A DNA stretch of 64,000 nucleotides from Clostridia bacterium (lineage in GTDB: Bacteria; Bacillota; Clostridia; Oscillospirales; SIG627): positions 1,979-65,978 of the forward strand of contig JAFWBD010000042.1 in assembly GCA_017507325.1 (NCBI GenBank). Reading direction: 5' to 3'. The first letter of the stretch is position 1. Each line of letters opens with the position of its first letter. Below are positions 2,656 to 44,590 of the stretch, in pieces. The position numbers and the translations under genes are program-made. Below the pieces are notes generated by a model. That model saw only the letters and a program-made list of their open reading frames with translations, was not told the origin of the DNA and ran no database searches.

Positions 2656-2662
2656 CGAAAAA

Positions 2663-2700
2663 GCACAAGCCCGTTTCTCGGGCTTGTGCACTCTTTTTTT
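2663..2700. terminator. Bidirectional rho-independent terminator between convergent genes
   Basis: Perfect 11-bp stem gcacaagcccg/cgggcttgtgc with loop tttct, followed by a T-run (2693-2700) and preceded by an A-run. Confidence 0.75.
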
Positions 2701-2705
2701 AGGGG

Positions 2706-8844: not shown

Positions 8845-8965
8845 GGGGAAAATGAAAAAAAGCAAAAAAAAGAACATTTTTTTCCGCTCCGATGAATTTT
8901 GGAGGACGAAGAAGGCTTTTTTTCAAAGAAAGAGGCATCTTTTCACAAAAAAATCACAAAAACAT

Positions 8966-8994
8966 TTGAAATGGAGCAAACTATGTATTATAAT
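8966..8994 (+). promoter_or_regulatory. Sigma-A-type promoter of the M16-lgt-folD gene string
   Basis: TTGAAA-17 nt-TATAAT, 49 nt upstream of ATG 9043. Confidence 0.6.
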
Positions 8995-9042
8995 ATAAAG
9001 AAGTATGCAAGGAATTCCCTCGGAATTCGGAAAGGAACCCAA

Positions 9043-14704: not shown

Positions 14705-15867
14705 AACGCTTCACGGTTCTATTTTGCATTGGGATCCTCGTTCTTCTTTGCGGGGTCTCCTGCCGAGAGGAGTCTTTCTCCTCCACCGAGGGGGAAAAGA
14801 ACCCCCAAACGGAACAAAGCGAGAGCCCCGTTTCCACGGAGGAGCGCTTTGACCCTCCAAAGCGGGAGGATCGGGCGGAAAAATATCCCGAGGATCTTTC
14901 GGCGTATATTACTCTTCCCGAGCATCTTGGGGTGAAGGCGCCCTTTGCCGACCCGAGCCTTTGCAGCGATGCGGAATTGGAGGAGGCCATTTTCCAGATC
15001 CGTTTGGCGGTGGCAAAATTTGAAAAGAAGACGGGAACGGCGGAGCGCTATGACAAGGTGGTTCTGGATTTTGAATTGATTCTGGACACCCTTGTGCAGG
15101 AGGAATATGCGGTGGATGATCTGGAGATCGTGATCGGGTCGGAATCCACCGAGGAGATCTACCGCGCCATGGCATCGGCCTTGGTGTCCGCGTCGGTGGG
15201 GGACGTCAGATATACGGAATACACCTATCCCGAATCGGTGCTGTACGGAGAGATGTCGGGAAAGACTGTGGTTTTAAAGGGCAGTCTCAAAGAAATCCAT
15301 TCCCCCGTGCTTCCCGAGCTTACCGAGGAATTCATTCATTCTCTGAAGGGCTTTGAGGGGAAAAGCGAAGCGGAATTTCGGGAGTCGGTGAAAAAATCCG
15401 TTCTGGAAAGCAAAGAGGAGGAAAAGGTGGAGCGGGTTTGGGCGGCCTTTTTGGAGGGAGTGGTGATCCATTCCTATCCCGAGGAGGTTTTGAATCTGTA
15501 TCGCGATGACCACGTTTCCTATTACAAGGCCTTTGCCGAGGCTATGAAAATGGATTACGAGAGCTTTTTGGCGGAATACATCGGCTCGACCGCTGCCGAG
15601 ATTGAAGCGGAGGCGGTGGAATATGCCAAGGAGATGGTCAAAAACGATATGGTCTTCCTGCGGCTCTCGCAGATCTTGAACATCACCTTGACTGAGGAGG
15701 AATTCCGTCTCGGAGCGGAGGAATACCGCGATCGGGACAGCGCCGAATTCGAATCCTTGGAGGAATTTATCGAATATTATTCCGAGAGCATCATCCGCCG
15801 CAATTTGATTTGGGACAAGGCTCTGATGGTGGTGGTGGACAACGCCGTTTCCACCGTAGCCTCCTAA
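14701..15867 (+). CDS. Second trigger-factor-like probable lipoprotein with a degenerate PPIase core
   Basis: Signal peptide …LLCGVSC. Same architecture as 13469-14704, but the GSG..GFE motif is replaced (GSESTEEIYRAMA). ATGA overlap with the upstream gene. Confidence 0.6.
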   Translation: MKRFTVLFCIGILVLLCGVSCREESFSSTEGEKNPQTEQSESPVSTEERFDPPKREDRAEKYPEDLSAYITLPEHLGVKAPFADPSLCSDAELEEAIFQIRLAVAKFEKKTGTAERYDKVVLDFELILDTLVQEEYAVDDLEIVIGSESTEEIYRAMASALVSASVGDVRYTEYTYPESVLYGEMSGKTVVLKGSLKEIHSPVLPELTEEFIHSLKGFEGKSEAEFRESVKKSVLESKEEEKVERVWAAFLEGVVIHSYPEEVLNLYRDDHVSYYKAFAEAMKMDYESFLAEYIGSTAAEIEAEAVEYAKEMVKNDMVFLRLSQILNITLTEEEFRLGAEEYRDRDSAEFESLEEFIEYYSESIIRRNLIWDKALMVVVDNAVSTVAS

Positions 15868-15999: not shown

Positions 16000-16872
16000 T
16001 TACAGCGCGGTTTTGCAAAGAGAAATGAAGTTTTTCACCACCTGAGAATGATAATTGTCCTTCATGGTGATGATGGCCCGCTTGATGGTGAGATCGCACT
16101 CCTCAATGGAGCAAAAACGGAGGGGCTTTTTGCAATAGGAAAGGCTGTTTTCGGGGACGATGGCAACGCCGAGCCCCGCCTCGGCCCATTTTAAGTTGAT
16201 GGTCAGCTGCTTATTGACGGCACGGATGGCGGGATGAAAATGGGCGCTGTTGCAAAGAGTGAGAAAGCGCTCCTCGTAGCGGCGAATGATCAAAAGCGGG
16301 AGATTTTCCAATTCCGAAAGGGAGATGGAGGATTTGTTGCCGAAGGAAAATACGTCGGGATCGTAGGCGCAGACCAATTTTTCATCGCTGATGAAAACCG
16401 CCTCCATATCCTCCGTCAAAGCGGCGGGGGTGGAAATGACTCCGATTTCCGCAATGCCGTCGGTAAGCATTTGCAAAATATCATCGGATTCCTTTTCGTG
16501 GATCTCATAGGTGACAAGGGGATATTTTTGGGAAAACATGGGGATGATGCGCTCCAGCAAATTGATCTCCCCCGATTGGATGGTGGCGATCCGAAGACAA
16601 CCGACGTTTCCGTTTTCGGAATCGTGAATTTCCTGGTGCAGGGCATTTTCCTGCATCAGGATTTTTTTGGCCCGTTCATAAAAGATCAGACCCGTATCGG
16701 TCAATTTCAGATGACGGGAATTGCGGTCGATCAAAACGGTATCCAATTCCTTTTCCAAGGCTTTGAGCTGATTGGAAAGGGCGGGCTGGGCGATGAAAAG
16801 CTTTTTGGAAGCCGCGGTCAGGGAGCCGGTGTCGGCGATTTCAATGAAATTTCTCAGGGTTTTACTGTTCAC
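16000..16872 (-). CDS. LysR-family transcriptional regulator, divergent from the portal gene
   Basis: N-terminal wHTH …LRNFIEIADTGSLTAASKKLFIAQPALSNQLKALE…. Start set at GTG 16872 with a GGAG RBS 7 nt upstream; the ORF-track start at 16953 adds 27 atypical residues. Confidence 0.8.
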   Translation of the reverse strand: MNSKTLRNFIEIADTGSLTAASKKLFIAQPALSNQLKALEKELDTVLIDRNSRHLKLTDTGLIFYERAKKILMQENALHQEIHDSENGNVGCLRIATIQSGEINLLERIIPMFSQKYPLVTYEIHEKESDDILQMLTDGIAEIGVISTPAALTEDMEAVFISDEKLVCAYDPDVFSFGNKSSISLSELENLPLLIIRRYEERFLTLCNSAHFHPAIRAVNKQLTINLKWAEAGLGVAIVPENSLSYCKKPLRFCSIEECDLTIKRAIITMKDNYHSQVVKNFISLCKTAL

Positions 16873-16981
16873 GGCGGATCTCCATTTGTTTTTGTTATGA
16901 ATACTTAAAAAAACAGCTGTTTTCAGTATAGACATAGAAGGAGAATTTGTCAAGGCTTTTTCAAAAAAGACTGCCGTGTCA

Positions 16982-17011
16982 TTGTGTGGCAGTATGCGTT
17001 TGTCATATAAT
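16982..17011 (+). promoter_or_regulatory. Candidate promoter of the portal-capsid module, with an overlapping inverted repeat
   Basis: TTGTGT-18 nt-TATAAT (17006-17011), 35 nt before ATG 17046. Inverted repeat actgcc-N12-ggcagt (16970-16993) overlaps the -35/spacer. Confidence 0.4.
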
Positions 17012-17045: not shown

Positions 17046-18617
17046 ATGAAAAAGCAAATGAAGAAGGTCATCACGGAGGATTTTGCTTTGCTGGAAAAGG
17101 GGAGAGAATACAACCGCAGGATCGCCTATTACGATACGGTGAACCGCAACGAAAGGTTTTACCGCGGCGATCAATGGATGGGGGTGCCCTCGGGGGATCT
17201 GCCCACTCCCGTATTCAATCTGTTCAAGCGCGTGATCAATTATTTTGTGTCCACGATCATGAGCCAGAAGATGTCCCTTCACTTTTCGGCGGAGGAGGTC
17301 GGGGGATTTTTAGATCCCGCCAAGCGAGCGCAGACCGATGAGGCCTGCCGACTTCTGACACGCTATCTGAATTACCGTTTGGAGAAGGATAAGGTGGATT
17401 CGATCCTGACCCGCGGTCTGATGGATGCCGCTGTTACGGGGGATATGTTTCTGTACGTGTACTGGGATCCCTCCAAGAGAACCGCCCAAGGCTTTATGGG
17501 GGATTTCGTAACGGAGCTTCTGGATGGTACGCAGGTATTCTTCGGGGACGTGAACACGCCTTCGGTGAAGGATCAGCCCTACATTCTGCTGACGGGAAGG
17601 GAATTGGTATCCAAGCTTCGGCAGGAGGCTCTGCTTTGCGGTGCCTCCCGCGAGGAGGCAGAGAGGATCGTTTCGGATTCCGACGTGGAGGATCAGACGG
17701 GCGATTACGGAAAAAAGGAGCTGGAGGGAACCAAGGCCACCTACGTGATCAAGCTCTTTTTGGAAAACGGAAGCGTTCGCTATCGGAAAAGCTGCCGCAG
17801 TACGGTGATTGTGCCCGAGCGGGATACGGGATTGCAAAGCTATCCCGTGGTTCTGATGAATTGGGAGGGCGTGAAAAATTCCTACCACGGCCAAGGAGCG
17901 GCCACCGCCCTGGCGGACAATCAGCTTTACATCAACAAGGCCTTTGCCATGGTGATGAAGCATATGATGGACGTTTCCTTTTCCAAGGTGATGTACAACG
18001 CCAATCTCATTGATGAATGGACGGGTGAGATTGGGGAGGCTGTTGCGGTAAACGGTCCCGTGGAGAATGCCGCCATCCGAATGGAGCCGGGCAGTATGCA
18101 GGCGGGTTTTTTGGAGGTCATCAATATGACCATGGGTGTCACCAAGGAACTGATGGGCGCCACCGACGCCGCCCTGGGCTCGGTCAATCCCGATAATACC
18201 AGCGCCATCATTGCCCTGCAGCAAAGCTCGGCCGTTCCGCTGGAATTGCAACGGAAGGCGCTGTATCTTGCCGTGGAGCAATTGGGAATGATCTGGCTGG
18301 ACTTTATTTTCCATTATTACGTGCCCGAGCGGGTGATCCTCTTTCGGGAAAAGGGAGAGCTTTTGGGAGGAACCCTTCCTCTCGATCAAATGCAGGACAG
18401 CATCTTTTCCTGTACCCTGCAGGCGGGAGCCTCCACCTATTGGAGCGAGATCGCTCAGGTTGCGACGTTGGATAAACTGCTTTCCTTGGGAATTATCCGC
18501 TTTTCGCAGTACCTGGAGCGCTTGCCCGACGGTTACATTGCCAAGAAGGAGGAGCTTCTGGAAACGGTTCGTGAGGAGGAAAAGGCCAAGCTCGGCCTGA
18601 TAGAGGGTCAGAAATGA
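17046..18617 (+). CDS. Phage portal protein (probable)
   Basis: 523 aa with an AAAGGAG RBS. Sits immediately upstream of scaffold-like and coat genes. N-terminal …NERFYRGDQW… and a size and charge pattern typical of portals. Call rests on recall and synteny only. Confidence 0.65.
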   Translation: MKKQMKKVITEDFALLEKGREYNRRIAYYDTVNRNERFYRGDQWMGVPSGDLPTPVFNLFKRVINYFVSTIMSQKMSLHFSAEEVGGFLDPAKRAQTDEACRLLTRYLNYRLEKDKVDSILTRGLMDAAVTGDMFLYVYWDPSKRTAQGFMGDFVTELLDGTQVFFGDVNTPSVKDQPYILLTGRELVSKLRQEALLCGASREEAERIVSDSDVEDQTGDYGKKELEGTKATYVIKLFLENGSVRYRKSCRSTVIVPERDTGLQSYPVVLMNWEGVKNSYHGQGAATALADNQLYINKAFAMVMKHMMDVSFSKVMYNANLIDEWTGEIGEAVAVNGPVENAAIRMEPGSMQAGFLEVINMTMGVTKELMGATDAALGSVNPDNTSAIIALQQSSAVPLELQRKALYLAVEQLGMIWLDFIFHYYVPERVILFREKGELLGGTLPLDQMQDSIFSCTLQAGASTYWSEIAQVATLDKLLSLGIIRFSQYLERLPDGYIAKKEELLETVREEEKAKLGLIEGQK

Positions 18618-19101: not shown

Positions 19102-19944
19102 ATGGCTATTGCAAACTTTATTCCCGCTCTGTGGAGCGAAACCCTTTATTCCGAATTGGAAAAGGATTACGTGGGAGTTCGCCTTTGCTCCCGTGAATTT
19201 GAAGGCGAGATCAAGGGGGAGGGTGACCGTGTGAAGATCTGCGGCATCGGCCCCGTGACGGTATTCGATTACCGAAAGAACCAGAATATGCCCGCGGCAC
19301 AGACCCTGACCGATCAGCAGCGCACGCTGATCATCGATCAGATCAAGGGCTTTAACTTCTGTCTGGATTCCGTGGACGTGGCTCAGTCCAAGAAGACGCT
19401 GATGCAGGCCGCGATGAAGGAGGCCTCCAACGCCCTTTCCGACGTGGCGGACAAATACGTGTACTCTCTTTATGACAGCGCGGTCAAATCCGTCACCAAC
19501 GACTACGTAACGGAGAACAACATTCTGCACACCCTGGCGGATGCCCGCCGCATTCTGATGGAGCACAACGTGCCCAATTCCACCAGAATCTCTTTGGAGA
19601 TTCCCCCTGCCATCGAGCAGAAGCTGGTGCTCTCGAAGGTGATGAACGCCACCGATAACACCGAGGTGCTGGGGCGCGGCTATATCGGAACCTTTATGGG
19701 CTTTGATATTTACGTGACCAACAACATCACCCCCGATGAAAACGGATGCTACCGCTGTTTTGCCAGAACGGGCAGAGCCGTGGCCTTTGCCGAGCAGCTT
19801 TCCGCCGTGAAGGCCTACGAGCCCGAATTGCGCCACGGAGATGCGGTCAAGGGACTTCATCTGTACGGTGCCAAGATCATTTACCCCAATGAATTGGTCT
19901 ATTTGAATCTGACTCCCGCCACGGACGACGAGTCGGAGGAATAA
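19102..19944 (+). CDS. Phage major capsid protein, P22-coat-like family
   Basis: 280 aa. The N-terminus MAIANFIPALWSE… matches the conserved FIPE(L/V)WS start I recall for P22_CoatProtein-family capsid proteins. Position after the scaffold gene fits. Confidence 0.7.
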   Translation: MAIANFIPALWSETLYSELEKDYVGVRLCSREFEGEIKGEGDRVKICGIGPVTVFDYRKNQNMPAAQTLTDQQRTLIIDQIKGFNFCLDSVDVAQSKKTLMQAAMKEASNALSDVADKYVYSLYDSAVKSVTNDYVTENNILHTLADARRILMEHNVPNSTRISLEIPPAIEQKLVLSKVMNATDNTEVLGRGYIGTFMGFDIYVTNNITPDENGCYRCFARTGRAVAFAEQLSAVKAYEPELRHGDAVKGLHLYGAKIIYPNELVYLNLTPATDDESEE

Positions 19945-20363: not shown

Positions 20364-22853
20364 ATGGCAAAGAATTTTACGTTTCGCATGGATCGCTTCG
20401 GCACGTATTGCCCCACCGAAAAGCGGGATCTGTATGCGGATCCCGCCAAAAGCCCCGATACCGTCAATTTTACCGTTTCCAAGGACGGCTTTTTGAAGAA
20501 GAGAGAGGGCTATTCGGTTTTGGCAAGGCCGAACGGAAAGATCCGCGCCATCGGGGTGGAAAATTTAGGCGGAAGGGAATATTTCCTTGCCGTGATCGCT
20601 TCTTCCTTATACGTTTCCGAGAGGGGCTTTGACAGTCTTCGGGCGGTATCGGGTACGGTGACGGGAGAGGGAAGGGTTCAGTTTTATTCCTTTTACGATG
20701 GGATCTATCTGATGACGGGGGAAGAGATTCTGTGCTTTAACGGAACGGATCTTGAGATCCTGACACCCCATGTCCCTTTGGTGATGATCTCTACAGACCC
20801 TTACGGGGAAGGAATTCTTTATGAGGAGCCCAATCTTTTGACCAACCGTGTGCGCCAAAGCTTTTCTCCCGATGGAGAGAGTCGGCATTTTTATCCCGTT
20901 CTGCCCGATATTCAATCGGTGGAATGGGTAAAGATCGGCGGAGAAACGGTTCCGACGGAGGAATACTACTGGGACGGAATGAACGGCTGTCTGGTATTTT
21001 TAACGGAGCCCGATCCCGGGACGGATACCATGGAGGTGCAAATGATACGCCGAGACAAGGCCGCACCGGATCGCATTCAAAAATGCCGTTTTGCTTGCTT
21101 TTTCGGGGGAGCCAACGATACCCGAGCCTTTTTATACGGCAATCCCGATACCCCCGCCATCCGCTATCACAGCGGGATGGTGGAGGGAAAGCCCGCCATG
21201 AATTACTTTCCCGAGACCGCCTATTCCTTGGTGGGGGGCGGAAGTACCGTTACGGCTGTGCTCCGTCACTACGACCGTCAGCTGATCTTTACGGAGAACG
21301 CCGCCTATTATTCCTACCTGGAATACTTAACGGGAGAAAACGGAAAGCTGATCGCCGCCTTTCCCGTTTTGCCCCTTTCGGACGATCGGGGGAACGTGCC
21401 CGAGGGGCAGGCGATCCTGGCAGAGAATACCCCTTATACCTTATCGGAAACGGGGCTTTACCGCTGGGTTTCCACCAGCATCCGCGATGAGAGAAACGCT
21501 CGCTGCGTTTCGGATCCCATTGCGAAGGCTCTGCAGAAGGAAAACTGCAGGGAGGCGATCTTGTTTTACCGCAAGGCGGAATCGGAGCTTTTGATCTCCT
21601 TCGGAACCACCCTCTACGTGTACCGCGAGCGGCAGGATCTGTTTTGCCGCTACGAGGTGCCGGATCTTTGCGGATTTGCCGAATGGGAAAACAAGCTGTA
21701 TTTCTTCACCGACAGCAGCATCTGTTTGGTGGGAGGGGAGAGCGATGCGGGAGCGGCTGTTTCGGCCCACTGGGAATCGGGGCTGATGGATTTCGGCTCT
21801 GCGGCCGCAAGCAAAAACCTCTTTTGGCTGAATCTTTTGGGGGAGAGCGAGGAGGATATGGCGGTGAAGATCACCCTTTTGGATGAAAAGGACACCGTGC
21901 GGGCGGAAAAAAGCATCCTCCTAAAGGGCGGAGTGCATTTTTCATCTGCTGCTTTGCGCCTTCCTCTCAGAAGGATTCGCCTTTTGAGGCTTCGTTGGAG
22001 CTTTCCTCCAAGGCCGCCCTCAGCATACGGGAGATCCGAGCCGAGGGACGGATCACGGATAAAAAGGAGTAAAAAAATGGCTATGAAGAATATAACGCAA
22101 AATCTCTTGAAGCGCTTGGAGGAGGGGACGGCGGAGATCTATTCCCGCTACCGCTCCCGCTTGAAGGAGACGCAAAAAAAGTACGACGTCGCACTGGAGG
22201 AATTGGAAGACGATCACCGCAGGGCGATGAACGCCGCATCGGCACAAGGGAAAATCGAAAGAAAGAATACCTTGGAAAAAATGGCGGATGCGGGATACGT
22301 GGGCGGCGGTGAAACGGTGCAGGTAAGCCTTGCCGCCGGTGCCGCCCGTGCCGCCGATCTGCGGGCTCTATCGGGTCAGCAGGCAAAAAATGCGGCACAA
22401 TTACAGGTGGAGAAGATCCGCGAGGAGCAGGATCTTTTGGAGACGGCCGACCGCGAGGCGGCTGAGCTGAAGGGAGACACCCTTTCGGCGATCCGCGAGC
22501 AGGAGAATCTGGATCGGGAATTCGAGGCGGAGGAGAATCAGCGGAAATTTGAAAACGATTTGGCCCTGAAGGAATGGGAATGGAAGAAAAGCGAAGCCGC
22601 TTCGGCCGAAAAAGAAAAGAACCCCACCAAGCAGGAGGAGGGGCTGGTTCCGAAAATCGAGCCTTACGCTTATCTGGAGGCGATTGTGGAGAAAAACACC
22701 GTTTACTATCCTCAGAAGGGCTATAAAACCCTGGATCGCCGCGGAATTTTGCAGGCCATCAACGATATTGTGCGGGATACCAACGTTTCCCGCAGCTATC
22801 GGTACGAATTGTATTTGTATGCCAAGAGTATGGGATATCTGAATATCGAATGA
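20364..22853 (+). CDS. Large phage-type structural ORF (829 aa as written). It is probably two genes fused by a 1-nt frameshift: a ~569-aa beta-rich protein (20364-~22072) and a 258-aa coiled-coil protein (22077-22853).
   Basis: Residues encoded at ~21955-22075 are R-rich junk in frame 0. The -1 frame there reads …SSQKDSPFEASLELSSKAALSIREIRAEGRITDKKE-TAA (stop 22070-22072), followed by AAAAAGGAG…ATG at 22077. Confidence 0.5.
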   Translation: MAKNFTFRMDRFGTYCPTEKRDLYADPAKSPDTVNFTVSKDGFLKKREGYSVLARPNGKIRAIGVENLGGREYFLAVIASSLYVSERGFDSLRAVSGTVTGEGRVQFYSFYDGIYLMTGEEILCFNGTDLEILTPHVPLVMISTDPYGEGILYEEPNLLTNRVRQSFSPDGESRHFYPVLPDIQSVEWVKIGGETVPTEEYYWDGMNGCLVFLTEPDPGTDTMEVQMIRRDKAAPDRIQKCRFACFFGGANDTRAFLYGNPDTPAIRYHSGMVEGKPAMNYFPETAYSLVGGGSTVTAVLRHYDRQLIFTENAAYYSYLEYLTGENGKLIAAFPVLPLSDDRGNVPEGQAILAENTPYTLSETGLYRWVSTSIRDERNARCVSDPIAKALQKENCREAILFYRKAESELLISFGTTLYVYRERQDLFCRYEVPDLCGFAEWENKLYFFTDSSICLVGGESDAGAAVSAHWESGLMDFGSAAASKNLFWLNLLGESEEDMAVKITLLDEKDTVRAEKSILLKGGVHFSSAALRLPLRRIRLLRLRWSFPPRPPSAYGRSEPRDGSRIKRSKKMAMKNITQNLLKRLEEGTAEIYSRYRSRLKETQKKYDVALEELEDDHRRAMNAASAQGKIERKNTLEKMADAGYVGGGETVQVSLAAGAARAADLRALSGQQAKNAAQLQVEKIREEQDLLETADREAAELKGDTLSAIREQENLDREFEAEENQRKFENDLALKEWEWKKSEAASAEKEKNPTKQEEGLVPKIEPYAYLEAIVEKNTVYYPQKGYKTLDRRGILQAINDIVRDTNVSRSYRYELYLYAKSMGYLNIE

Positions 22854-30334: not shown

Positions 30335-31786
30335 ATGAAGAAATGCATTGGTATTGTTTTGATCGCGGGAATCCTTTTTTTCTGTGGAATTTTCCCGCAG
30401 GCTGCTTCTTCGGGGGGGTGTGAAGAATGTGCGGCCTTGGAGGCGGCGGGCTTTCCCGCGGGCTATCGGGAGGCTCTGTGCGCCGTTCAAAAGAAGCATC
30501 CCGAGTGGCGTTTCGTACCTCTTTCGGTGACGGCGCTTTCGGACGTGCGGGGAGAAAATTACAGCTTCGGGTACGTTTTGGATCAGGAATTGCGCACGCC
30601 TTCGCGAAATCTGGTTCCCTCGGGGGAGGTGTACCGCCCGTACCGGGCGGAGGGAGGTGAATGCTGCGACAGCGGTTATTTTCCCGCCTCCCGCGAGGCG
30701 GTGGCGTATTTTGTGGATCCGCGGCCGCATCTTTCCGAAAAGGGAATCTTTCAGTTTTTGGATCTTTCGAATTGTGCGGACGTTTCGGTGCGGGACGTGG
30801 AACGGGCATTGGAGAACACGGATTATTCCCGGAAAGAAACGGCCGAAGCAATCCTTTCCTTGGGGAAGAAGCACGGGATCAATCCCTTGGGAATCGCGGT
30901 GCGACTGCGAAGGGAGCAGGGAAGGGAGGGAAACTGTCTTCTTTGGGGGAAGAGCGGAACGGTTTTGTGGAATTGGTATCAAAACGGAACCCAAACGGAG
31001 GCAGGCCGACAGATTCTGGCTCCCGCCGAAGGGCATTCGGAAAAGGAGCTGCTTTCCCTTGACGGCTTTTTCAATCCCTTGAACGTTGCCGCCTCGGGGA
31101 CGGGCGCCTTCCGCATCTATGAAGCGGGGGCAAGATATGCCGCGGCCCGGGGATGGGATTCCTTTGACAAGGGCCTTGAGGGCGGCATCCGAAAAATAGC
31201 GGAGGAATACGTTCTCCGTTTTCAGAATACCCCGTATTTACAAAAATGGAACGTGGATATCCGCTCCTGCGGGGAAAGCGGAGCCTCCCGAAATTTTTGG
31301 GGGCAATATATGCAGAACGTCGGCGGAGCGAAACGGGAGGGAGAAATGCTGTACGATTGCTACCTCCAAACGGGCTTGCTTTCCTGCCCTTTGGTGTTTT
31401 GTATTCCCGTTTATGACGCAATGCCCCCCTTCCCGTCCCCGGATCCCGCCGAAGGGAAATGTCCTCTTTTTTCGGCCGAGGAAAGGACTCTCTGCCAAAG
31501 GGGGAGCCTTGTGACGGAGGATCACGAAGAAAATATGAGTGAAAAATCCGTTGATGCGGCACAGGCCCCCGAGAGACAAATCGGAGCGAAGGAGAATCCC
31601 GCTCAAAGAGAACGGGAGAAAAGGAGCGTGCCTCTTGTCTTGGCGCTGGGGGGTCTTTTTCTCTTGGCAAAGGGCTTCTTGCTTTGTAAAAAGCCCCGTT
31701 TTCTCGAAAAAAAGAGAAAAATTTTGCAAAAAAAGGTAGAAAAAAATCAAAAAAAGTCTCCCAAAATTTTGATTTTTGTGCTATAA
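30335..31786 (+). CDS. Secreted, C-terminally membrane-anchored cell-wall hydrolase-like protein (glucosaminidase/muramidase-type domain, tentative)
   Basis: N-terminal signal peptide (MKKCIGIVLIAGILFFCG…) and a C-terminal TM helix (VPLVLALGGLFLLAKGFLL) followed by a K-rich tail. The central region resembles LytD-type glucosaminidase domains by recall only. Confidence 0.55.
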   Translation: MKKCIGIVLIAGILFFCGIFPQAASSGGCEECAALEAAGFPAGYREALCAVQKKHPEWRFVPLSVTALSDVRGENYSFGYVLDQELRTPSRNLVPSGEVYRPYRAEGGECCDSGYFPASREAVAYFVDPRPHLSEKGIFQFLDLSNCADVSVRDVERALENTDYSRKETAEAILSLGKKHGINPLGIAVRLRREQGREGNCLLWGKSGTVLWNWYQNGTQTEAGRQILAPAEGHSEKELLSLDGFFNPLNVAASGTGAFRIYEAGARYAAARGWDSFDKGLEGGIRKIAEEYVLRFQNTPYLQKWNVDIRSCGESGASRNFWGQYMQNVGGAKREGEMLYDCYLQTGLLSCPLVFCIPVYDAMPPFPSPDPAEGKCPLFSAEERTLCQRGSLVTEDHEENMSEKSVDAAQAPERQIGAKENPAQREREKRSVPLVLALGGLFLLAKGFLLCKKPRFLEKKRKILQKKVEKNQKKSPKILIFVL

Positions 31787-33903: not shown

Positions 33904-34653
33904 TTATTTTTCAATGCCGAAATCCTGAAGGGTCAGGGAGGAAAGATCGCTCTCCTCCTCTTCGTCTTCCGCCGAGGGTTCCTCTTCAACGTTTTTTTCG
34001 GGGGGATCGGAGGGAGGGGGAACGGGCCCCGCCAAGCTTCGCAGGATCAGAGAAAGCAGATAGAAAATCTGATAGAGAAAAACGGAAATGGTAAAAAAGC
34101 GATAGTGAAAGCCCGAATGGCCGATGGGAATGATCTGATAAAAATAGTAGGGGGAAAGCTTTTGATCCAAAAGAGCCGAGAGGATCAGAAGAAGAATTTC
34201 CAAAAGCCCGTAGCCTGCGTAAAAATGCAGGGCAAAGGGGCGAATCTCCCGCAAAAAGAAAGAGGCCATGGCAAAAAAGGCACAGAGGAGAATGAAAAAA
34301 TGAGAGATCAAAACGGAGGTATGTACCGTTTCCTCCCCCAGCACGGCGAAAAACTGCAAAAGGGCGTAAAGGGCAAAGGGGAGAGAGCCCAGCGCCGTTC
34401 CCAAAAGCTGAAGGGCCTTCCCGGGACGGGCAAGATACAGAGCGGAGGCGATCACGGAAAAGAAGGGGACCGCCATCCAGACCGTGTCGGAAAAGGCGGT
34501 GAAAAAGCCCTTTTGGGTGGACACGGGAATTTCAAAATAAAAGCGCATTCCGATATCGGAAAACCAGCCCCAGGCAAAAAAGGTGAAAAACAGCATGGCC
34601 GCGGAGGCCAGCAGGGAAAGAACGGTAAAAAGGGTGTAACGCTTGGAATTCAT
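33904..34653 (-). CDS. Polytopic membrane protein of unknown function with a proline- and acid-rich C-terminal tail
   Basis: 249 aa, about 6 hydrophobic helices, tail …PVPPPSDPPEKNVEEEPSAEDEEEESD…. I recognise no family. Confidence 0.6.
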   Translation of the reverse strand: MNSKRYTLFTVLSLLASAAMLFFTFFAWGWFSDIGMRFYFEIPVSTQKGFFTAFSDTVWMAVPFFSVIASALYLARPGKALQLLGTALGSLPFALYALLQFFAVLGEETVHTSVLISHFFILLCAFFAMASFFLREIRPFALHFYAGYGLLEILLLILSALLDQKLSPYYFYQIIPIGHSGFHYRFFTISVFLYQIFYLLSLILRSLAGPVPPPSDPPEKNVEEEPSAEDEEEESDLSSLTLQDFGIEK

Positions 34654-34782
34654 ACGGCATTCACTTCCTCGTTTCTTTTAAATCCAATCCATTATAAAGA
34701 AAAAAACCTTCTCCGTCAAGGGATTGTCATGGCGTGGCAGTGGGGTTTTGTAGTAAAATCTCCAAAAAAAGGAGAAAGAATT

Positions 34783-35184
34783 GTGAAAAAAACAAAACTG
34801 ACGGAAGAAAAGGCAAAAATCCTTCTGCGGCGCTACTTTGAAAGCCGCAAGGTGGAGAAAAGAGATTCGCAGGGGAATCCCATTGTGAACAAAATGGGGG
34901 AGACCGTCCTTGAGGCCCGACCCGCTACGGTAACGGGAATGGTTCTGGCACTGGGGCTTTGCGGTCGGGAGGAATTGGAGGCGATCACAGACAAAAAAAC
35001 AAAAGCACTCATTGACCGAGCGCTTTTGAAGATCGAGGAGGAGGCGGAGGAAAAGCTTTTTTCCAAGGACTGCTTTAACGGGGCCAAGCTGTTTTTGTCG
35101 GTCAATTTTCCCCGTTGGAGCGGGGAGAGCGTTGCGGAAACGGGCACCGCTTCCTTGGGGGTCTGCTCCGTTTGGGCGGAATGA
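34783..35184 (+). CDS. terS: Phage terminase small subunit (gp3-packaging-type), isolated copy
   Basis: 133 aa. GTG 34783 follows an AAAGGAG RBS. Pattern …YFE…PATVTGMVLALGL.GREEL…IDRALLKIEEEAEEKLF…GAKLFLSVNF..W matches the HTH and oligomerisation core I recall for small terminases. Only the 3' end of the 611-aa track ORF is credible. Confidence 0.65.
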   Translation: MKKTKLTEEKAKILLRRYFESRKVEKRDSQGNPIVNKMGETVLEARPATVTGMVLALGLCGREELEAITDKKTKALIDRALLKIEEEAEEKLFSKDCFNGAKLFLSVNFPRWSGESVAETGTASLGVCSVWAE

Positions 35185-35185
35185 A

Positions 35186-35794
35186 TCATTCCACCACCAC
35201 GATCAAGCACCCGCTGTGAACCGTGATGCGGGTGTTTTCGCGGGCCTCGTTGCTGACCCCCAAGGGAAAATCGGGGGTAACGCGGGCACGGTTTACATTG
35301 TATTTGGCACCGCTGACGGAAACCTCGGCTTCGCCGCCTGCGGCAAACAAAGAAAAATATCCATCGGATGCCGCGAGGGTCAGGGTTCCCGCTTCCAGCA
35401 GAAGAACCCGACAGTAGGGGTCCACGATCTCCCCCTCGGCCCCGTGGCTTTTTAAAAAGAACAGGGTTTGCAAATTGGCAAGGGAATGGGAAAATCTCTT
35501 CCCCCCCAGAGCACCGTACAGCCGAAAGCGGCGATAGCCCAAAAAAAGGCCGTGGCGGCAAGCGGCGATCATATCGGTATCGTCCTTTTCGCAGGGGAGA
35601 GACAAAACGGGAAGCGAGGTGGGCAGATACCCGAGAGAATCCCCGTCGCCGATGAAAAGATCGGCCGTTTTTCCCGCACGGCTCAGATATTCAAGCCCCC
35701 CGTCGGCGGCCAGGATCAGATCCGACTCTTTTTTTTCGGGTAAAAGGGCAGGATCGATGCGCCCGGCACCCACAACGTGGCAAACACCCTTCAT
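35186..35794 (-). CDS. thiN: Thiamine diphosphokinase
   Basis: 202 aa with …ILAADGG…FIGDGDS…KDDTDM…, co-operonic with thiT. Confidence 0.85.
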   Translation of the reverse strand: MKGVCHVVGAGRIDPALLPEKKESDLILAADGGLEYLSRAGKTADLFIGDGDSLGYLPTSLPVLSLPCEKDDTDMIAACRHGLFLGYRRFRLYGALGGKRFSHSLANLQTLFFLKSHGAEGEIVDPYCRVLLLEAGTLTLAASDGYFSLFAAGGEAEVSVSGAKYNVNRARVTPDFPLGVSNEARENTRITVHSGCLIVVVE

Positions 35795-36459
35795 TTCCGT
35801 TCCCCTTCCGCTTGAATGAGGGGGATGCGGGAGACAAAGGCGGCCGCCAGCGCGGTCAGAATCATTTCGGGAAGCATATAAAGGCCGTTATAGATCAAGG
35901 AGTACAAAAGGGAAAGAAGAGCGCCCGAGCAATGCTCCATAATCCAGGCGGAAAAGGGAAAGGCGGCGGCAGCGCTTTCCGTGAAAAACCAGCTTGCCCA
36001 TTCTCCGTAAAAAACGGCACCCGAAAGCACGTGGAAGGCATAGGTCAAGCTGAGGGCAAAAAGGCTCCCCTGAACCAGCGCCTTCTTTTTGGGGAAAAGG
36101 CGGCGGAACACGCCTCCCAGCCCCGCGACACCGAAGGCACAAATATAATCCAAAAACAAAATGATCAGCGCGATGCCCGCCCCTCCCATATAGGAATCCG
36201 AGGAGGGCAAAAAGAGAGCGGAGACCGTTTTAAAGCCCACGGCCATTTGCAAAACGGCAAAAATAAGACCGCTTCCCAGACCCCATTTCAGCCCGTAAAG
36301 GTAGGAAATGACGATCAAGGGCAAAAGACCCGCGGGGGTGATGGTACCGCCGAAGGGCAGGTTTAAAAAGGGAATGAATTCCGCCACAAAGGTCAGCGCG
36401 GTGCCCAAGGCAATGAGCATGGCGGAGGTGACCAGCTTTTTGGTTTTGCTTTGCTTCAT
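35791..36459 (-). CDS. thiT: ECF-type thiamine transporter S-component (ThiT-like)
   Basis: About 220-aa, 6-TM protein directly downstream of a TPP riboswitch. Start at ATG 36459 (MKQSKTKK). Confidence 0.75.
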   Translation of the reverse strand: MKQSKTKKLVTSAMLIALGTALTFVAEFIPFLNLPFGGTITPAGLLPLIVISYLYGLKWGLGSGLIFAVLQMAVGFKTVSALFLPSSDSYMGGAGIALIILFLDYICAFGVAGLGGVFRRLFPKKKALVQGSLFALSLTYAFHVLSGAVFYGEWASWFFTESAAAAFPFSAWIMEHCSGALLSLLYSLIYNGLYMLPEMILTALAAAFVSRIPLIQAEGERK

Positions 36460-36524
36460 AAAAGGCTCCCAAATAAAAAATTCACACAGGACGGAGGGCC
36501 TGCGTGAATGTATCTTCGTCAACA

Positions 36525-36605
36525 AAAACTCCCTACGCCGGTATTATCCATCTCAGGTAAAAGGGTTCGCATTCTGATGCGTCTCAGCCGAAGCACCCCT
36601 GTTTT
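36525..36605 (-). promoter_or_regulatory. TPP (THI-box) riboswitch
   Basis: Minus strand reads GGGGTGC…CTGAGA…AACCC…ACCTGAGATGGATAATACCGGCGTAGGGA, the conserved TPP aptamer core. Confidence 0.85.
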
Positions 36606-36627
36606 TTTCCGCTTGTGCGTGGGACTT

Positions 36628-36656
36628 ATTATACGTTTTTTTTTGCAATTTGTCAA
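36628..36656 (-). promoter_or_regulatory. Sigma-A promoter driving the TPP riboswitch-thiT-thiN operon
   Basis: Minus strand reads TTGACA-17 nt-TATAAT. The -35 lies 12 nt from the terL ATG on the other strand. Confidence 0.7.
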
Positions 36657-36667
36657 GAGAGAATCAT

Positions 36668-38038
36668 ATGAATACCGTTGAACGTTTTTTATCCAGTCTG
36701 CACCCTTTTCCGCCCCAGGAGAAATTTTTTTTGGCAAAAGCGCGGCGCATTGCCTACGGCGGTGCGAGAGGGGGCGGCAAGAGCTTTGCCATGCGGGCCA
36801 AATTGGTGCTGCTTGCTTTGCGCTACCCCGGGATCCAGATCCTTCTGTTGCGCCGCACCTTTCCCGAATTGCGGGAGAATCATATCAATCCTCTTCAGCG
36901 CTGGCTGTACGGCTTTGCCCGCTATAAGGATTCCACCAAGGAGTTTTTGTTCCCCTCGGGATCCCGCATCAAATTGGGGTATCTCAGCGAGGAGGGTGAT
37001 ACTCTGCAGTATCAAGGGCAGGCCTACGAGGTCATCGGAATGGAGGAGGCCACCCAATTTTCCGAAAGCCAATACTATGCCATGACGGAATGCTGCCGTC
37101 TGGCAGGACAGCTGAAGGAAAAATTCACCCCGCGGATGTATTTTACCTGCAATCCCGGCGGGGTGGGACACGCTTGGGTGAAAAGGCTGTTTATCGACCG
37201 CCGCTATCGGGAGGGAGAGCGGGAGGAGGATTACGTGTTCATTCCCTCCACGGTGTACGACAACCGCTATCTGATCAGCGAAAATCCCGAATACGTCCGC
37301 AATCTGGAAAGCCTTCCTCCCTTGCGGCGCAGGGCGATGCTGGAGGGGGATTGGGATGCCTACGAGGGACAGTATTTTACGGAATTTGACCGAAAGCGCC
37401 ACGAGATCGAGCCCTTTGCCATCCCCGAGGATTGGCACCGCTTTGCGGCGCTGGATTACGGCCTTGATATGACGGCTTGCCTTTGGTTTGCCTATCCCCC
37501 CGACCGAAGAAGAATCGTGGTATATCGGGAATTGTATTGCCCCGATCTGGTTCTGTCTCAGGCGGCGGAAAAAATTTTGGAGGCCAACCAATCGGATCCC
37601 GTTCGCTATATTGCCGCCTCCCCCGATCTGGCGGGGCGCAGGCAGGAGGGCGGCAAGAGCGGCTTTGATATTTTATCGGCGGCGGGGATGAAAAATCTGA
37701 TCCCTGCGGAAAACGCCAGAATACCCGGTTGGCGAAGGGTGCGGGAATTTTTGCGCGCCTCGGGGGAGGAGGGGGCCTATTTGGGCTTGTTTTCTTCCTG
37801 CCGAAATCTGATCCGCACCCTGCCGCAGCTCCGCTTCGATCCCGTGAAAACCGAGGATGCCGCGCTGACGCCCCACGAATTCACTCACGCCCCCGACGCC
37901 TTGCGCTACGGCCTCTCCTCTCTGCCCTTTTTACCGGGAGAGCCTCTGCGGGAAAAGAAGGTGCGAAAGAGCATTCGGGATGAATTTTTCGGAAAGCGGG
38001 AAGGCGCGGGGGAATATTTCGATTTTTTGAAAAAATGA
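36668..38038 (+). CDS. terL: Phage terminase large subunit, isolated copy
   Basis: Walker A YGGARGGGKSF, Walker B-like …YEVIGMEEAT, C-terminal nuclease-type region (…ALDYGLDMT…), 456 aa. ATG 36668 is preferred over the TTG at 36650. Confidence 0.8.
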   Translation: MNTVERFLSSLHPFPPQEKFFLAKARRIAYGGARGGGKSFAMRAKLVLLALRYPGIQILLLRRTFPELRENHINPLQRWLYGFARYKDSTKEFLFPSGSRIKLGYLSEEGDTLQYQGQAYEVIGMEEATQFSESQYYAMTECCRLAGQLKEKFTPRMYFTCNPGGVGHAWVKRLFIDRRYREGEREEDYVFIPSTVYDNRYLISENPEYVRNLESLPPLRRRAMLEGDWDAYEGQYFTEFDRKRHEIEPFAIPEDWHRFAALDYGLDMTACLWFAYPPDRRRIVVYRELYCPDLVLSQAAEKILEANQSDPVRYIAASPDLAGRRQEGGKSGFDILSAAGMKNLIPAENARIPGWRRVREFLRASGEEGAYLGLFSSCRNLIRTLPQLRFDPVKTEDAALTPHEFTHAPDALRYGLSSLPFLPGEPLREKKVRKSIRDEFFGKREGAGEYFDFLKK

Positions 38039-42264: not shown

Positions 42265-42481
42265 ACTCTAAAAAGCGGAAGGGAGGAAATGATTCCGTGA
42301 AGAAAACCGAAAGAAAAACGCATTTTTTATCAGCTCGGGTCATCTCGTCCTCGGGGAGGTATTGCCTGCTGCTGAGCAGTACCTGCGCATAGTCTGCCGA
42401 CGGGCTATGCGCAACTGCCTTGAAGCTTTCCGATTGATATTTCGAATACAACAAAATAACCGAAAGGAGCGACCCGGCGAT

Positions 42482-44590
42482 ATGATGAAAAAGAAATGGA
42501 GAGTACTGAGCGGCGCGATGGTTCTTTGCCTTTTGCTTGCGATGCTTTCCGCTTGCCATACGGGCGAAATGCCGCAGACAAGCTTTCCGAAAACAGAGCC
42601 CCTTTCTTCCGATGAAGTCCTCACCGATTCTACCGAAGAATCCTTGACCCAGGAAGATGCGAAAACCGAAGAGCCGATCACAGGGGAGCAAGAAACGAAG
42701 GAGCCCGAAACAAAGGAGCCCGAAACAAAGGAACCCGAAACGAAGGAACCCGAGACGGAAGAGCCCAAAATCTTGCCTCCGGAGGGCTTTATTGAATATA
42801 TGGATTGGTGGGGGCCCATCAAGCCGTTTCAGCGATATTACCCCTTTAAAATGTACCGAATTGACTTTTTATCCAGCCACGGGATCTTTTCGATCGAAGA
42901 GGTGCATCAAGCTGCCATTCAGGTCGAACAGAGCGTGACAACTGACGAGATTGTACAAATCCCTTCCATTTATTTGATGATCCAAGCGATGGGGATTCCG
43001 AAGGAAACGTTCATTCAGGTCAACGAAGCCTACAAAGCAAAGCCCACCTCCGATTATCCCGCATATACGGATGAAGAAATTGAGGGGCTGTATCTCCCTC
43101 GGGATCAGATCAAAGAAGCGCTGAAGCTGGATTACGCCTTCTTTTACGAAGGAAATTTATACAATCTTGAGGAATTGTCTTATTTGGAGGATGCAAAATT
43201 AAAAGAAATGATCGCCAAAGGCGGTCTCAATGAATTCTTCGAAAAAAACAAGGTATATTCGGATTGGAGACCGCAGTATTGGAGTTTTATGCTGGACCGT
43301 ATGGCCACCATCCGCCAAGGCGGCACCTCGATCCCCGCAGTCAAGCCCGAGCCGCCGCTTTTGGACGATGAATCCAAAAAGCCGGAGGGTTTTGTGGATG
43401 ATAAATTCTGGATCGGAGATATCCCTTTCTATCTACATTTTATCCCTCAGGTCTACAACTACAAAATGCTGTATCAATACGGCTTTTATACCGAAGGGGT
43501 CGTTGATTTGATGCGCAAGAGGATCGAAAGAAAGGAATGGGTTCCGGTGTTCTATCTTCTCATCAAGGAAATGGAGATCCCCAAGGAAACATTCATTCAG
43601 ATCAACGAAGCTCATAAGAACGCCTTGAAAACAAAGCCTCAGAATTCGGACGAATACCCCGCCTTTACCGATGAGCAGATCGATCTGCTTTACAGCTGCA
43701 CCGAGGAGGAGATCCGCCTTGCCTTGAAAACGGAATATACCTTTTTGTATGAGGGGCAATTGCACACCGTCGGTCAGCTTGTAAAGCTGAACAGCGAACG
43801 TCCGGATATTTTCAGAGAAATGGTGGAAAAAGGCGGTTTAAGCGAATTTTTGGAGCAAAATCAAAAGTATGCGGACTGGATGCCCAGCGTTTGGGTTCCT
43901 TTGCAGAAGCTGGTGGACGAGGTGAAAGGCGGCACCTCGATCCCCGCAGCGGGGCCCGAGCCGCCCGAGCCGCCGCTTTTAAACGATGAATCCAAAAAGC
44001 CGGAGGGCTTTGTGGATGATAAATTCTGGAAGAAGTCTGCTTTTGAGCTGTATTTTGTTCCCCAGGCCTATCATGACAAAATGCTGATTCAATACGGCTC
44101 TTACTCCGAGACGTTCGTTGATCTGATGCGCAAAAATTGGGCCGAGGAAAGCAGGCAAAAATATGGATATACCGATCAAATTCCGCTGATCTATTATCTG
44201 ATCCGAGAGATGAAGATTTCCAAGGAAAGCTTCATTCAGATCAACGAAGCCTACAAGGAGGCCTTGAAAACAAAGCCTCAGAATTCGGACGAATACCCCG
44301 CCTTTACCGATGAGCAGATCGATCTGCTTTACAGCTGCACCGAGGAGGAGATCCGCCTTGCCTTGAAAACGGATTATGCCTTTATGTACAAGGGAGTCCT
44401 GTATAACGTTGCTTTACTCAAAAAGGCCGGAGGAACGGACCCCGTCTTCTTCAGAGAAATGGTGGAAAAAGGCGGTTTGAGCGAATTTTTGGAGCAAAAT
44501 CAAAAGTATGCGGACTGGATGCCAAGCGTTTGGGTTCCTTTGCAGAAGCTGGTGGACGAGGTGAAAAAAACGCTTCCCTCCGCCTCATAA
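42482..44590 (+). CDS. Lipoprotein with an ETKEP tandem-repeat linker and three ~210-aa repeats of an unknown domain
   Basis: Signal peptide MMKKKWRVLSGAMVLCLLLAMLSAC with a canonical lipobox (LSAC), then a repeat architecture (see repeat features). The track start at 42362 is rejected. Confidence 0.75.
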   Translation: MMKKKWRVLSGAMVLCLLLAMLSACHTGEMPQTSFPKTEPLSSDEVLTDSTEESLTQEDAKTEEPITGEQETKEPETKEPETKEPETKEPETEEPKILPPEGFIEYMDWWGPIKPFQRYYPFKMYRIDFLSSHGIFSIEEVHQAAIQVEQSVTTDEIVQIPSIYLMIQAMGIPKETFIQVNEAYKAKPTSDYPAYTDEEIEGLYLPRDQIKEALKLDYAFFYEGNLYNLEELSYLEDAKLKEMIAKGGLNEFFEKNKVYSDWRPQYWSFMLDRMATIRQGGTSIPAVKPEPPLLDDESKKPEGFVDDKFWIGDIPFYLHFIPQVYNYKMLYQYGFYTEGVVDLMRKRIERKEWVPVFYLLIKEMEIPKETFIQINEAHKNALKTKPQNSDEYPAFTDEQIDLLYSCTEEEIRLALKTEYTFLYEGQLHTVGQLVKLNSERPDIFREMVEKGGLSEFLEQNQKYADWMPSVWVPLQKLVDEVKGGTSIPAAGPEPPEPPLLNDESKKPEGFVDDKFWKKSAFELYFVPQAYHDKMLIQYGSYSETFVDLMRKNWAEESRQKYGYTDQIPLIYYLIREMKISKESFIQINEAYKEALKTKPQNSDEYPAFTDEQIDLLYSCTEEEIRLALKTDYAFMYKGVLYNVALLKKAGGTDPVFFREMVEKGGLSEFLEQNQKYADWMPSVWVPLQKLVDEVKKTLPSAS
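42692..42766 (+). repeat. Five tandem 15-bp coding repeats (ETKEP x4 + ETEEP)
   Basis: Units gaaacgaaggagccc / gaaacaaaggagccc / gaaacaaaggaaccc / gaaacgaaggaaccc / gagacggaagagccc, read directly from the sequence. Confidence 0.95.
43317..44566 (+). repeat. Internal duplication within the lipoprotein gene: modules 2 and 3 are offset by exactly 639 nt
   Basis: A 113-nt run is identical (43622-43734 = 44261-44373). A ~117-nt run is near-identical (43811-43927 vs 44450-44566). Linkers 43317-43412 and 43926-44030 are near-identical apart from a 9-nt insertion. Confidence 0.9.

Follow-up and report, generated by a model that had tools for sequence, protein, structure and literature searches.

The contig JAFWBD010000042.1 of a Clostridia bacterium carries, within the 64-kb stretch analysed here (the window), genes for the small and large subunits of a phage-type terminase, terS and terL, which lie on the + strand on either side of a thiamine operon read from the - strand. 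Are such genes the leftovers of a prophage, part of an element that still moves between genomes, or working genes that the host lineage has kept? Sequence comparison favours the last, and we consider it likely that terS and terL belong to a vertically inherited, phage-derived capsid and packaging module of several loci that resembles a gene transfer agent (GTA). That the module is inherited vertically, that its loci are co-regulated and that the thiamine (thi) operon is a derived, co-adapted insertion are well supported. The arrangement is atypical both for an ordinary prophage and for a decaying remnant, as the preliminary description of this DNA had remarked; the head genes further upstream, the vertical inheritance and the ancestral adjacency of terS and terL with later thi insertion are points that it missed.

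Relatives were taken from a search of one genome per species, in which 198 species had a TerL relative; the best 80 of those 198 TerL loci were fetched and analysed, and clustering of their open reading frames (ORFs) yielded two groups. Group A loci, the window included, have TerL proteins 62-82% identical, and within 6 kb only terS and terL were found. Group B loci (TerL 54-63% identical to that of the window) hold packaging and head genes in one contiguous cluster, ordered small terminase, TerL, portal-like protein, 180-amino acid (aa) protein, 274-aa protein, small proteins and 570-aa protein, frequently with the housekeeping genes lepA and hemW upstream. In the fuller views of two loci (L081 and L084) a cluster of the Group B type extends to a holin. 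The full order in distant relatives is TerS-TerL-portal-scaffold-like-capsid protein, then the conserved families C7 and C4, then holin, with core genes on both sides.

Packaging and head genes

The product of terL (36668-38038, + strand, ATG at 36668) can be identified with certainty, on its family matches, as a large terminase with ATPase and nuclease parts: it matches PF04466 (1.7e-13), PF03237 (2.2e-12) and phrog_979 (6.7e-47), and a phrog_2 match spans residues 11-448. All 80 orthologous genes are complete (440-480 aa). The alignment that had been proposed as a check of motif integrity found YGGARGGGKS, EEAT, TCNPGG and the Asp residues of ALDYG, SPD and DALRY invariant in 80/80; we take these to be the Walker A, Walker B and coupling motifs and the acidic residues of the nuclease. 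A phmmer search of TerL against PDB gave no match, so the roles of the nuclease residues are presumptive. TerL is the best conserved protein of its neighbourhood, with a median identity of 80% to the 13 closest loci. Eight of its nine neighbours reach 38-64% (lowest a 249-aa membrane protein encoded upstream of terS, highest ThiT and the dipicolinate synthase B subunit, the ninth having no adequate match). The ratio of nonsynonymous to synonymous polymorphism (pN/pS) is 0.22 for terL and 0.45 for terS, and the corresponding ratio of substitution rates (dN/dS) for terL is ~0.1. By these measures terL is under strong purifying selection and not cryptic, contrary to what had been thought possible.

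The smaller gene, terS (34783-35184, + strand), begins with GTG at 34783 behind the strong ribosome-binding site AAAGGAG already pointed out in the preliminary description, and ends with TGA at 35182-35184. Its naming as a small terminase does not hold on the single sequence, whose matches are weak (PF16677 at 18 bits against a cut-off of 29.4; phrog_606 at E 1.4e-3), but it does hold at the level of profiles. In 42 related loci terL is directly preceded by a terS homologue, and several TerS orthologues already carry PF16677 in the database. Aligned by hhalign, the TerS profile matches that of the small protein found at the same position in distant clusters (family C5) with 94.4% probability (E 8e-8), and a representative of this sister family passes PF16677 at 9e-10. 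The AlphaFold2 model of TerS (mean predicted local distance difference test score, pLDDT, 83) has as its top full-length PDB match 3p9a, a subunit of the P22 gp3 nonamer, over 133 columns, a weak match (TM-score 0.41-0.47, E 0.2). On its position in the 42 loci, the profile alignment, the PF16677 assignments of orthologues and the weak fold match, we accept terS as encoding a predicted divergent small terminase of the P22 gp3 type. An inserted beta-hairpin of ~20 residues (residues 23-45) is absent from the sister family.

The nearest entry in the phage collection searched is L083 (MT836592.1, 1-9588), an unannotated 9.6-kb 'Bacteriophage sp.' contig from human faeces. It carries a homologous cluster, TerL-portal-scaffold-like-capsid-123 aa-203 aa-C4, and its small terminase is of the unrelated Terminase_2 type with a helix-turn-helix. 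This difference in type suggests that the small terminase has been swapped within the module family.

Searching the window with Group B proteins located the head genes 15-20 kb upstream of the terminase genes. The two sets form separate loci 15 kb apart, at 17.0-22.9 kb and 34.8-38.0 kb, with the dnaK operon between them. All head genes are on the + strand. The first (17046-18617) encodes a P22-like portal protein (PF16510 at 4.3e-15, phrog_156 at 6e-31), which is 46-60% identical to the portals of contiguous clusters and has at least 120 listed orthologues at 51-100% identity. It is followed by C3 (18614-19081), which has no match among the curated families of Pfam and NCBIfam, and whose putative scaffold role is read from its position between the portal and capsid genes, as in Group B and L081. 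The 280-aa major capsid protein (19102-19944) is of the HK97 type (phrog_267 at 1.3e-37, PF25209 at 6e-11); it matches the major capsid protein gp6 of PDB entry 8e16 at E 2.8e-27 and shares 39-41% identity with the capsid proteins of phages of Aeribacillus and C. perfringens. C7 (19969-20352) encodes a conserved 127-aa protein, possibly a head-completion or adaptor protein, with a gene order kept in Group B, L081, L082 and L085.

The operon closes with an 829-aa ORF (20364-22853), for which profile searches gave no family match and in which a C4 protein (~570 aa) is joined to a ~260-aa module rich in E, K and A. Residues 1-520 match C4 (32% identity, E 8e-70), while the E/K/A-rich C-terminal part matches a separate 274-aa ORF in L082. 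L085, the closest relative seen and identical in layout to the head operon of the window, likewise has C4 (568 aa) followed by a separate 264-aa ORF at the corresponding position. The joining in the window is explained either by a genuine fusion or by loss of a stop codon or an error of assembly in this metagenome-assembled genome (MAG).

Among the loci, pairwise TerL identity correlates with that of the type III glutamine synthetase GS-III (r 0.98), glucose-6-phosphate isomerase (PGI, 0.92), PrmA (0.93) and LepA (0.73), and also with portal (0.93) and capsid (0.87) identity. Within each group the core genes at the flanks are conserved. No integrase, primase, replication or lysogeny genes were found in or adjoining the clusters of the window, L081, L082, L084 and L085. 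The intactness of TerL, its invariant motifs, its pN/pS and this correlation with housekeeping genes argue for a domesticated element rather than a remnant or a mobile one.

The head and terminase loci also share a promoter element. Alignment of terS upstream regions revealed a conserved direct repeat, TGTCAT-N4-TG(G/T)CA, followed 13-14 nt on by a TAnnnT hexamer. At terS the pattern occupies 34725-34759 (+ strand; TGTCATGGCGTGGCA, 14 nt, then TAAAAT at 34754-34759), its repeat (TGTCAT-N4-TGGCA, 34725-34739) lying 58 nt ahead of the start codon. Before the head operon it occupies 16977-17011, with the same strand and 14-nt spacing (TGTCATTGTGTGGCA at 16977-16991, TATAAT at 17006-17011). Neither promoter has a good -35 hexamer. 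The pattern TGTCATNNNNTGKCA-N13/14-TANNNT has exactly two matches in the window, those before terS and the portal gene, which are also the sole mismatch-free copies of the repeat itself, and none in 100 shuffles; terS, for which no convincing promoter had been recognised, thus has a conserved -10 and upstream repeat element in common with the portal operon. Across the loci there are 20 exact single matches, all on the + strand, of which 18 are upstream of terS, one is before the L082 portal gene and one (L020 661-695) is before a tail-fibre and lysis operon. With up to one mismatch, the pattern precedes terS in 33/42 Group A loci at 28-125 nt (mostly 47-90), and the L085 portal gene is likewise preceded by the element. 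The same element before terS, the portal gene and the L020 tail-fibre and lysis genes makes the head and terminase loci, with the L020 block, look like one regulon.

The L020 block (661-4730), on the + strand and ending at terS, encodes a collagen-repeat tail-fibre-like protein, a second fibre-like protein, an XhlA-like protein, a GH25 endolysin and a small membrane protein; no homologues of its genes were found in the window or in the other loci. In L082 the capsid gene is followed by genes for a tail-fibre protein and an M15 endolysin.

Divergent from the portal promoter is a gene for a LysR-type protein (16000-16953, - strand), whose start codon is 24 nt from the direct repeat; L085 has a 61% identical counterpart at the same position (8928-9803, - strand). 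As candidate activator the LysR-type protein is only a lead, and the likeness of TGTCAT-N4-TGKCA to direct repeats of the Pho-box type is another. Readings as sigma-54 or sporulation-sigma promoters were discarded, since order and spacing do not fit the consensus sequences. Group B clusters are without the Group A pattern. Five of them (L046, L050, L052, L054 and L055) have GGGATTTTCTTCGGAAAAAAGC twice in tandem ~60-140 nt upstream of the small terminase gene and TGTCAAnnnnTGKCA ~200 nt upstream of it. In L084 an XRE-type helix-turn-helix gene diverges from the cluster.

The thi cassette and transcription of terL

The unit between terS and terL was correctly described as a minus-strand riboswitch-thiT-thiN operon: its Rfam and Pfam matches agree. 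The thiamine pyrophosphate (TPP) riboswitch (36480-36610) consists of an aptamer (36513-36610; Rfam RF00059 at 62 bits against a gathering score of 54.3, E 9.5e-10) and a terminator-like hairpin and T-run (36509-36480). It is followed by thiT (35791-36459), for the S component of an energy-coupling factor (ECF)-type thiamine transporter (PF09515 at 1e-19), and thiN (35186-35794), for thiamine pyrophosphokinase (PF04263 at 2e-11, PF04265 at 2e-9). The thiT promoter (36627-36656, - strand), TTGACA-17-TATAAT with its -35 at 36656-36651 and -10 at 36633-36628, agrees with the consensus at 12/12 bases and is the best of five promoter-like sites in 3.9 kb (shuffles 2.2 +/- 1.4). By sequence, the cassette is a TPP riboswitch-controlled thiamine salvage operon.

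Both junctions are tight. The thiN stop (complement of 35186-35188) is convergent with that of terS across a gap of 1 nt, as had been noticed. At the other end 11 nt, and not 12 as first counted, separate the terL ATG from the complement of the thiT -35 hexamer; the closeness itself stands, and so does the deduction that any terL promoter here must overlap that of thiT. The ribosome-binding site of terL is indeed weak, no good Shine-Dalgarno sequence being found (agagagaatcat). The complement of the thiT -35 (TTTGTCAAG) is 4-12 nt from the terL ATG throughout the close clade. Among more distant loci with thiT alone, it is 15-50 nt away in 6/9, most of which show a good Shine-Dalgarno sequence.

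The preliminary description had asked whether thiT-thiN is always between the terminase genes; it is not, and loci with adjacent terS-terL, with thiT only and with thiN only all exist. In the TerL tree, loci with adjacent terS-terL (gaps 7-74 nt) are basal. One clade has thiT alone, and within it lies a thiN-thiT subclade in which, as in the window, a queG-like gene follows terL. L015 has thiN only, behind the same promoter, and the TPP riboswitch is beside terL in 9/9 thiT-bearing loci tested. On this distribution, the adjacency of terS and terL as the ancestral state and the thi cassette as a derived, long-retained insertion, with thiT first and thiN later, are well supported. Three loci inside the thi clade (L009, L024 and L043) speak against so simple a history: their terS and terL are adjacent, which needs secondary loss or recombination. 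In L009 a decayed copy of the terminator described next is retained, which argues that this locus lost the cassette secondarily.

There is no intergenic space at the 3' end of the thi operon, and a terminator scan found its intrinsic terminator antisense within terS (34990-35028, - strand; hairpin 35028-35000 plus T-run). Since the hairpins of two clades among the 22 embedded-terminator sequences are in different registers, pairs were counted in the main clade and each sequence was folded separately. The mean folding free energy of the segment is -16.8 kcal/mol in thiN-bearing loci and -19.2 in loci with thiT only, against -7.2 in cassette-free loci with adjacent terS-terL; the T-run is kept in thi-bearing loci, whereas loci with neighbouring terS and terL have neither hairpin nor T-run. 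Pairing in the main clade reaches 94% of cells (slid controls 30-60%), and one pair has a compensatory change. L025, L027, L029 and L037 have other amino acids there and a different, stronger hairpin (-26 to -33 kcal/mol). The hairpin should not stop terS transcripts, because no U-run follows it on the + strand. A co-adaptation of cassette and terS, confined to thi-bearing lineages, is therefore the well supported interpretation of these comparisons.

How, then, might terL be transcribed? No copy of the shared promoter element was found upstream of terL in the window or the loci, nor any conserved independent + strand promoter. A + strand candidate in the riboswitch complement (36519-36547, TCAACA-17-TATTAT, 9/12) was rejected, its -35 not being conserved in relatives and its -10 being the aptamer motif GGTATTATCC read backwards. 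A degenerate direct repeat before terL in several loci (TTTCACGATTTGTCA) proved to be the thiT spacer plus the -35 complement; the window does not have it, and a -10 at the usual distance of 14 nt would lie within the ORF.

Our preference is for transcription that starts at the terS promoter and reads through the antisense cassette; we give it about an even chance. It agrees with the logic of the ancestral operon, with the orientation of the cassette, which always permits read-through, and with the terminator scan, which revealed no convincing terminator on the + strand of 35185-36667. A difficulty is that such transcription would meet head-on traffic from a promoter of consensus strength and would feed a weak terL Shine-Dalgarno sequence. 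The main competitor, somewhat less probable in our estimate, leaves the element as it is and has terL transcribed chiefly from the thiT promoter acting bidirectionally, through its near-symmetric -10 TATTATA (36627-36633), with a + strand start near 36640, a leader of ~28 nt and low, activator-independent expression of TerL. It would account for terL having no conserved promoter of its own. The thiT -10 overlaps a + strand TATTAT (36627-36632), and TAnnnTA with reciprocal -11A/-7T occurs in 26/26 scored sequences (the window and 25 loci), although this count holds by construction; the first position of the + hexamer is T in 15/26, and the predicted leader is 20-29 nt in the window and the 17 closest loci. 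Coming from related loci, these counts are not independent of one another. Bidirectional sigma-70 promoters with TAnnnTA, in which -11A and -7T of the two strands coincide, have been described (Warman et al. 2021; PMC10268837), with an 18-bp distance between the two start sites (PMC10268837). The + strand -35 of the window differs from these in being poor, as it is in all scored loci (1-3/6 bases; L018 is the only one below 2), and an extended TG is lacking. A bidirectional start would, moreover, uncouple terL from the element shared by terS and the portal gene.

If read-through operates, the cassette could act as a metabolic gate, with thiamine status governing the number of polymerases that arrive at terL after starting at terS; we regard this as improbable, and mention it since a promoter proper to terL is missing and the gene is preceded by 1.5 kb of convergent transcription that the riboswitch controls. 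When TPP is ample, thi transcription would end at 36480, conceivably limiting interference to ~140 nt. With scarce TPP, full-length antisense transcription might suppress terL, and the filling of particles would then perhaps be coupled to cofactor supply. Such a gate would fit four features, namely an opposite orientation that is conserved, junctions of only 1 and 11 nt, the terminator embedded in terS and the long retention of the cassette.

Neighbouring genes

The neighbours of terS and terL in the window are housekeeping genes: hrcA-grpE-dnaK-dnaJ, dipicolinate synthase genes, the queG-like gene and genes for an SPFH protein and a permease. Immediately upstream of terS, on the - strand, the 249-aa protein (33904-34653) is conserved, passes the membrane several times, has an acidic tail and matches no family; its gene is syntenic with terS in 10 close relatives and has an 11/12 consensus promoter (34691-34719, - strand) back-to-back with the terS promoter element. 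In L021 a ZMP/ZTP riboswitch (4518-4597, - strand, 62.8 bits) is just upstream of terS.

Between hrcA and a CarD-like gene, a + strand gene (30335-31786) encodes a conserved protein of 483 aa, secreted or membrane-bound, that weakly matches a SagB-type glucosaminidase. The gene is syntenic in L005, L009, L013 and L019, and its product could be a cell-wall hydrolase; nothing ties it to the phage-derived genes. Further downstream a 742-aa ORF (42362-44590, + strand; 696 aa from the ATG at 42500) has a PETKE-repeat linker and three ~190-aa internal repeats, with no Pfam match. Upstream of the head operon (13469-15867, + strand) are two tandem lipoprotein-like paralogues with trigger-factor C-terminal and FKBP domains, which are kept in L085.

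Nature of the module and its relation to known systems

We suppose that terS and terL are working packaging genes of a domesticated module present in a large clade of mostly uncultured gut Clostridia. Comparison of the loci shows its ancestral type to be a single TerS-TerL-portal-scaffold-like-capsid-C7-C4-holin cluster flanked by housekeeping genes such as lepA and hemW. In the lineage of the window the terminase pair came apart from the head genes, after which a TPP riboswitch-thiT cassette entered the opposite strand between terS and terL, with thiN joining later. A putative activator binding the direct repeat may switch on the head operon and terS together, terL messenger would arise by read-through from the terS promoter, and TerS and TerL would load DNA through the portal into small capsids.

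What is found agrees with the general features of GTAs. Phage-derived structural and packaging genes occur without replication, integration or lysogeny modules (the caveat being a serine recombinase in 12 loci), they show vertical inheritance and purifying selection (r 0.73-0.98, dN/dS ~0.1), and several loci bear one promoter pattern, from which we infer common control. The features of a prophage or its remnant are not seen: in place of an integrase with att sites, patchiness and decay, there are core flanks, presence in 198 species and 80/80 intact genes. The module is thus probably a GTA.

Some observations weigh on the other side. The function is read from genomics alone, and the TerL tree, a simple neighbour-joining tree, limits the history that can be drawn from it. 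The 64-kb window shows neither tail, holin or endolysin genes of any kind nor homologues of those seen in L020, L081 and L082. The recombinase mentioned above (C13, a large serine recombinase of ~450 aa) directly follows terL in 12 loci with adjacent terS-terL (L028, L030, L032-L036 and L038-L042; e.g. L041 7447-8817), between terL and the C14-prmA-rsmE genes; it could hint at residual mobility, a relic integrase and a DNA switch being the candidates for its role. The comparison below with the GTA of Faecalibacterium prausnitzii, finally, is indirect, through published protein names and family models.

The missing tail and lysis genes give some room to a domesticated capsid and packaging module with a purpose other than gene transfer, in a lineage that has lost its tail and lysis functions. 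L085, too, has no tail, holin or endolysin genes beside its head operon, and the head and terminase genes are strongly conserved all the same. The window is only 64 kb of a genome, however, other members keep tail-fibre, holin and endolysin genes, and in L020 such tail-fibre and lysis genes stand behind the same promoter pattern directly upstream of terS, so that we think this reading unlikely; tail-less DNA-filled capsids, a defence or decoy role, and DNA disposal or storage would be examples of what it allows. Less probable still is a small element that is common in MAGs and still moves between genomes, such as a capsid-forming phage satellite or mini-prophage. It could point to the 9.6-kb faecal contig with its homologous cluster, to the recombinase beside terL and to capsid-forming satellites of similar gene content (10.64898/2026.07.08.737213). 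The clusters are nevertheless free of integrase, primase and replication genes and are flanked by core genes conserved per group, TerL co-varies with housekeeping genes (r up to 0.98), and the genes are distributed over two loci 15 kb apart. We find it hardly credible, and already contradicted, that terS and terL are functionless leftovers of a decaying prophage with a silent terL. There are no other phage genes within 10 kb, and terL has a weak ribosome-binding site and no recognisable promoter of its own, but the 80 orthologues are intact with invariant catalytic residues, TerL exceeds its housekeeping neighbours in conservation, and its dN/dS is low (~0.1).

The nearest described system to the GTA-like module is FpGTA of F. 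prausnitzii (PMC12946183, Nat Commun 2026), and both occur in gut Clostridia of the Oscillospirales type. They share the order TerS-TerL-portal-(small protein)-capsid-hypothetical, as found in our contiguous clusters, a core of ~10 kb, an E/K/A-rich ('TolA-like') protein, a TerS without helix-turn-helix domain, tail-fibre and lysis genes in a second locus, and the absence of an integrase or replication module (PMC12946183). In FpGTA, unlike the window, the capsid protein carries an N4-gp56 family annotation, a gene for a Prp-like protein stands between those for portal and capsid, and the terminase genes remain with the head genes, where those of the window are in a separate locus split by a host operon. 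The capsid protein and C3 of the window have no NCBIfam match, and in Pfam only PF25209 is matched, by the capsid protein; by name, then, neither N4-gp56 nor Prp-like proteins are seen. Family naming in NCBIfam and Pfam gave no link to FpGTA, and an exhaustive capsid search with cluster names returned only unnamed proteins or MAG proteins of Clostridia, Clostridiales and Eubacteriales.

RcGTA-type GTAs of the Alphaproteobacteria (see also PMC11841831) are likewise vertically inherited phage-derived head and packaging genes, with a multi-locus 'genome' under common transcriptional control and host-like evolutionary rates. Their sequence families are unrelated to those of the window; RcGTA has a siphovirus-like tail module, its terS and terL (g1, g2) are adjacent in the head cluster, and no counterpart of its regulators CtrA and GafA was identified in the window element. 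To the headful module of P22 (gp3 TerS, gp2 TerL, gp1 portal) the resemblance is one of parts: profile comparison places TerS with the gp3 family PF16677, the portal matches PF16510 (P22_portal), and the TerS-TerL-portal order recurs in the contiguous clusters. The window differs from P22 in having no surrounding phage genome and a capsid of another family (PF25209, closest PDB entry 8e16 gp6), and from the P22-type sister family in the beta-hairpin insertion of its TerS. We file the element as GTA-like, with an unusual split of the terminase genes.

GTA-like packaging of bacterial DNA has been reported from the gut virome as common in Oscillospiraceae, Ruminococcaceae and Christensenellaceae, the locus having been identified only in Faecalibacterium (PMC12946183). 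The module provides a concrete candidate locus for such packaging, a gene set conserved in the genomes of ~200 species, with a promoter element by which the remaining loci can be sought and with clear predictions for particle proteomics. Should the GTA reading be wrong, a false 'prophage' call would still be removed from many MAGs. The terminase locus, moreover, illustrates two things neatly: in it a host operon has entered a domesticated phage operon, with mutual adaptation following, and a single stretch of terS encodes protein on one strand and the terminator of the inserted operon on the other.

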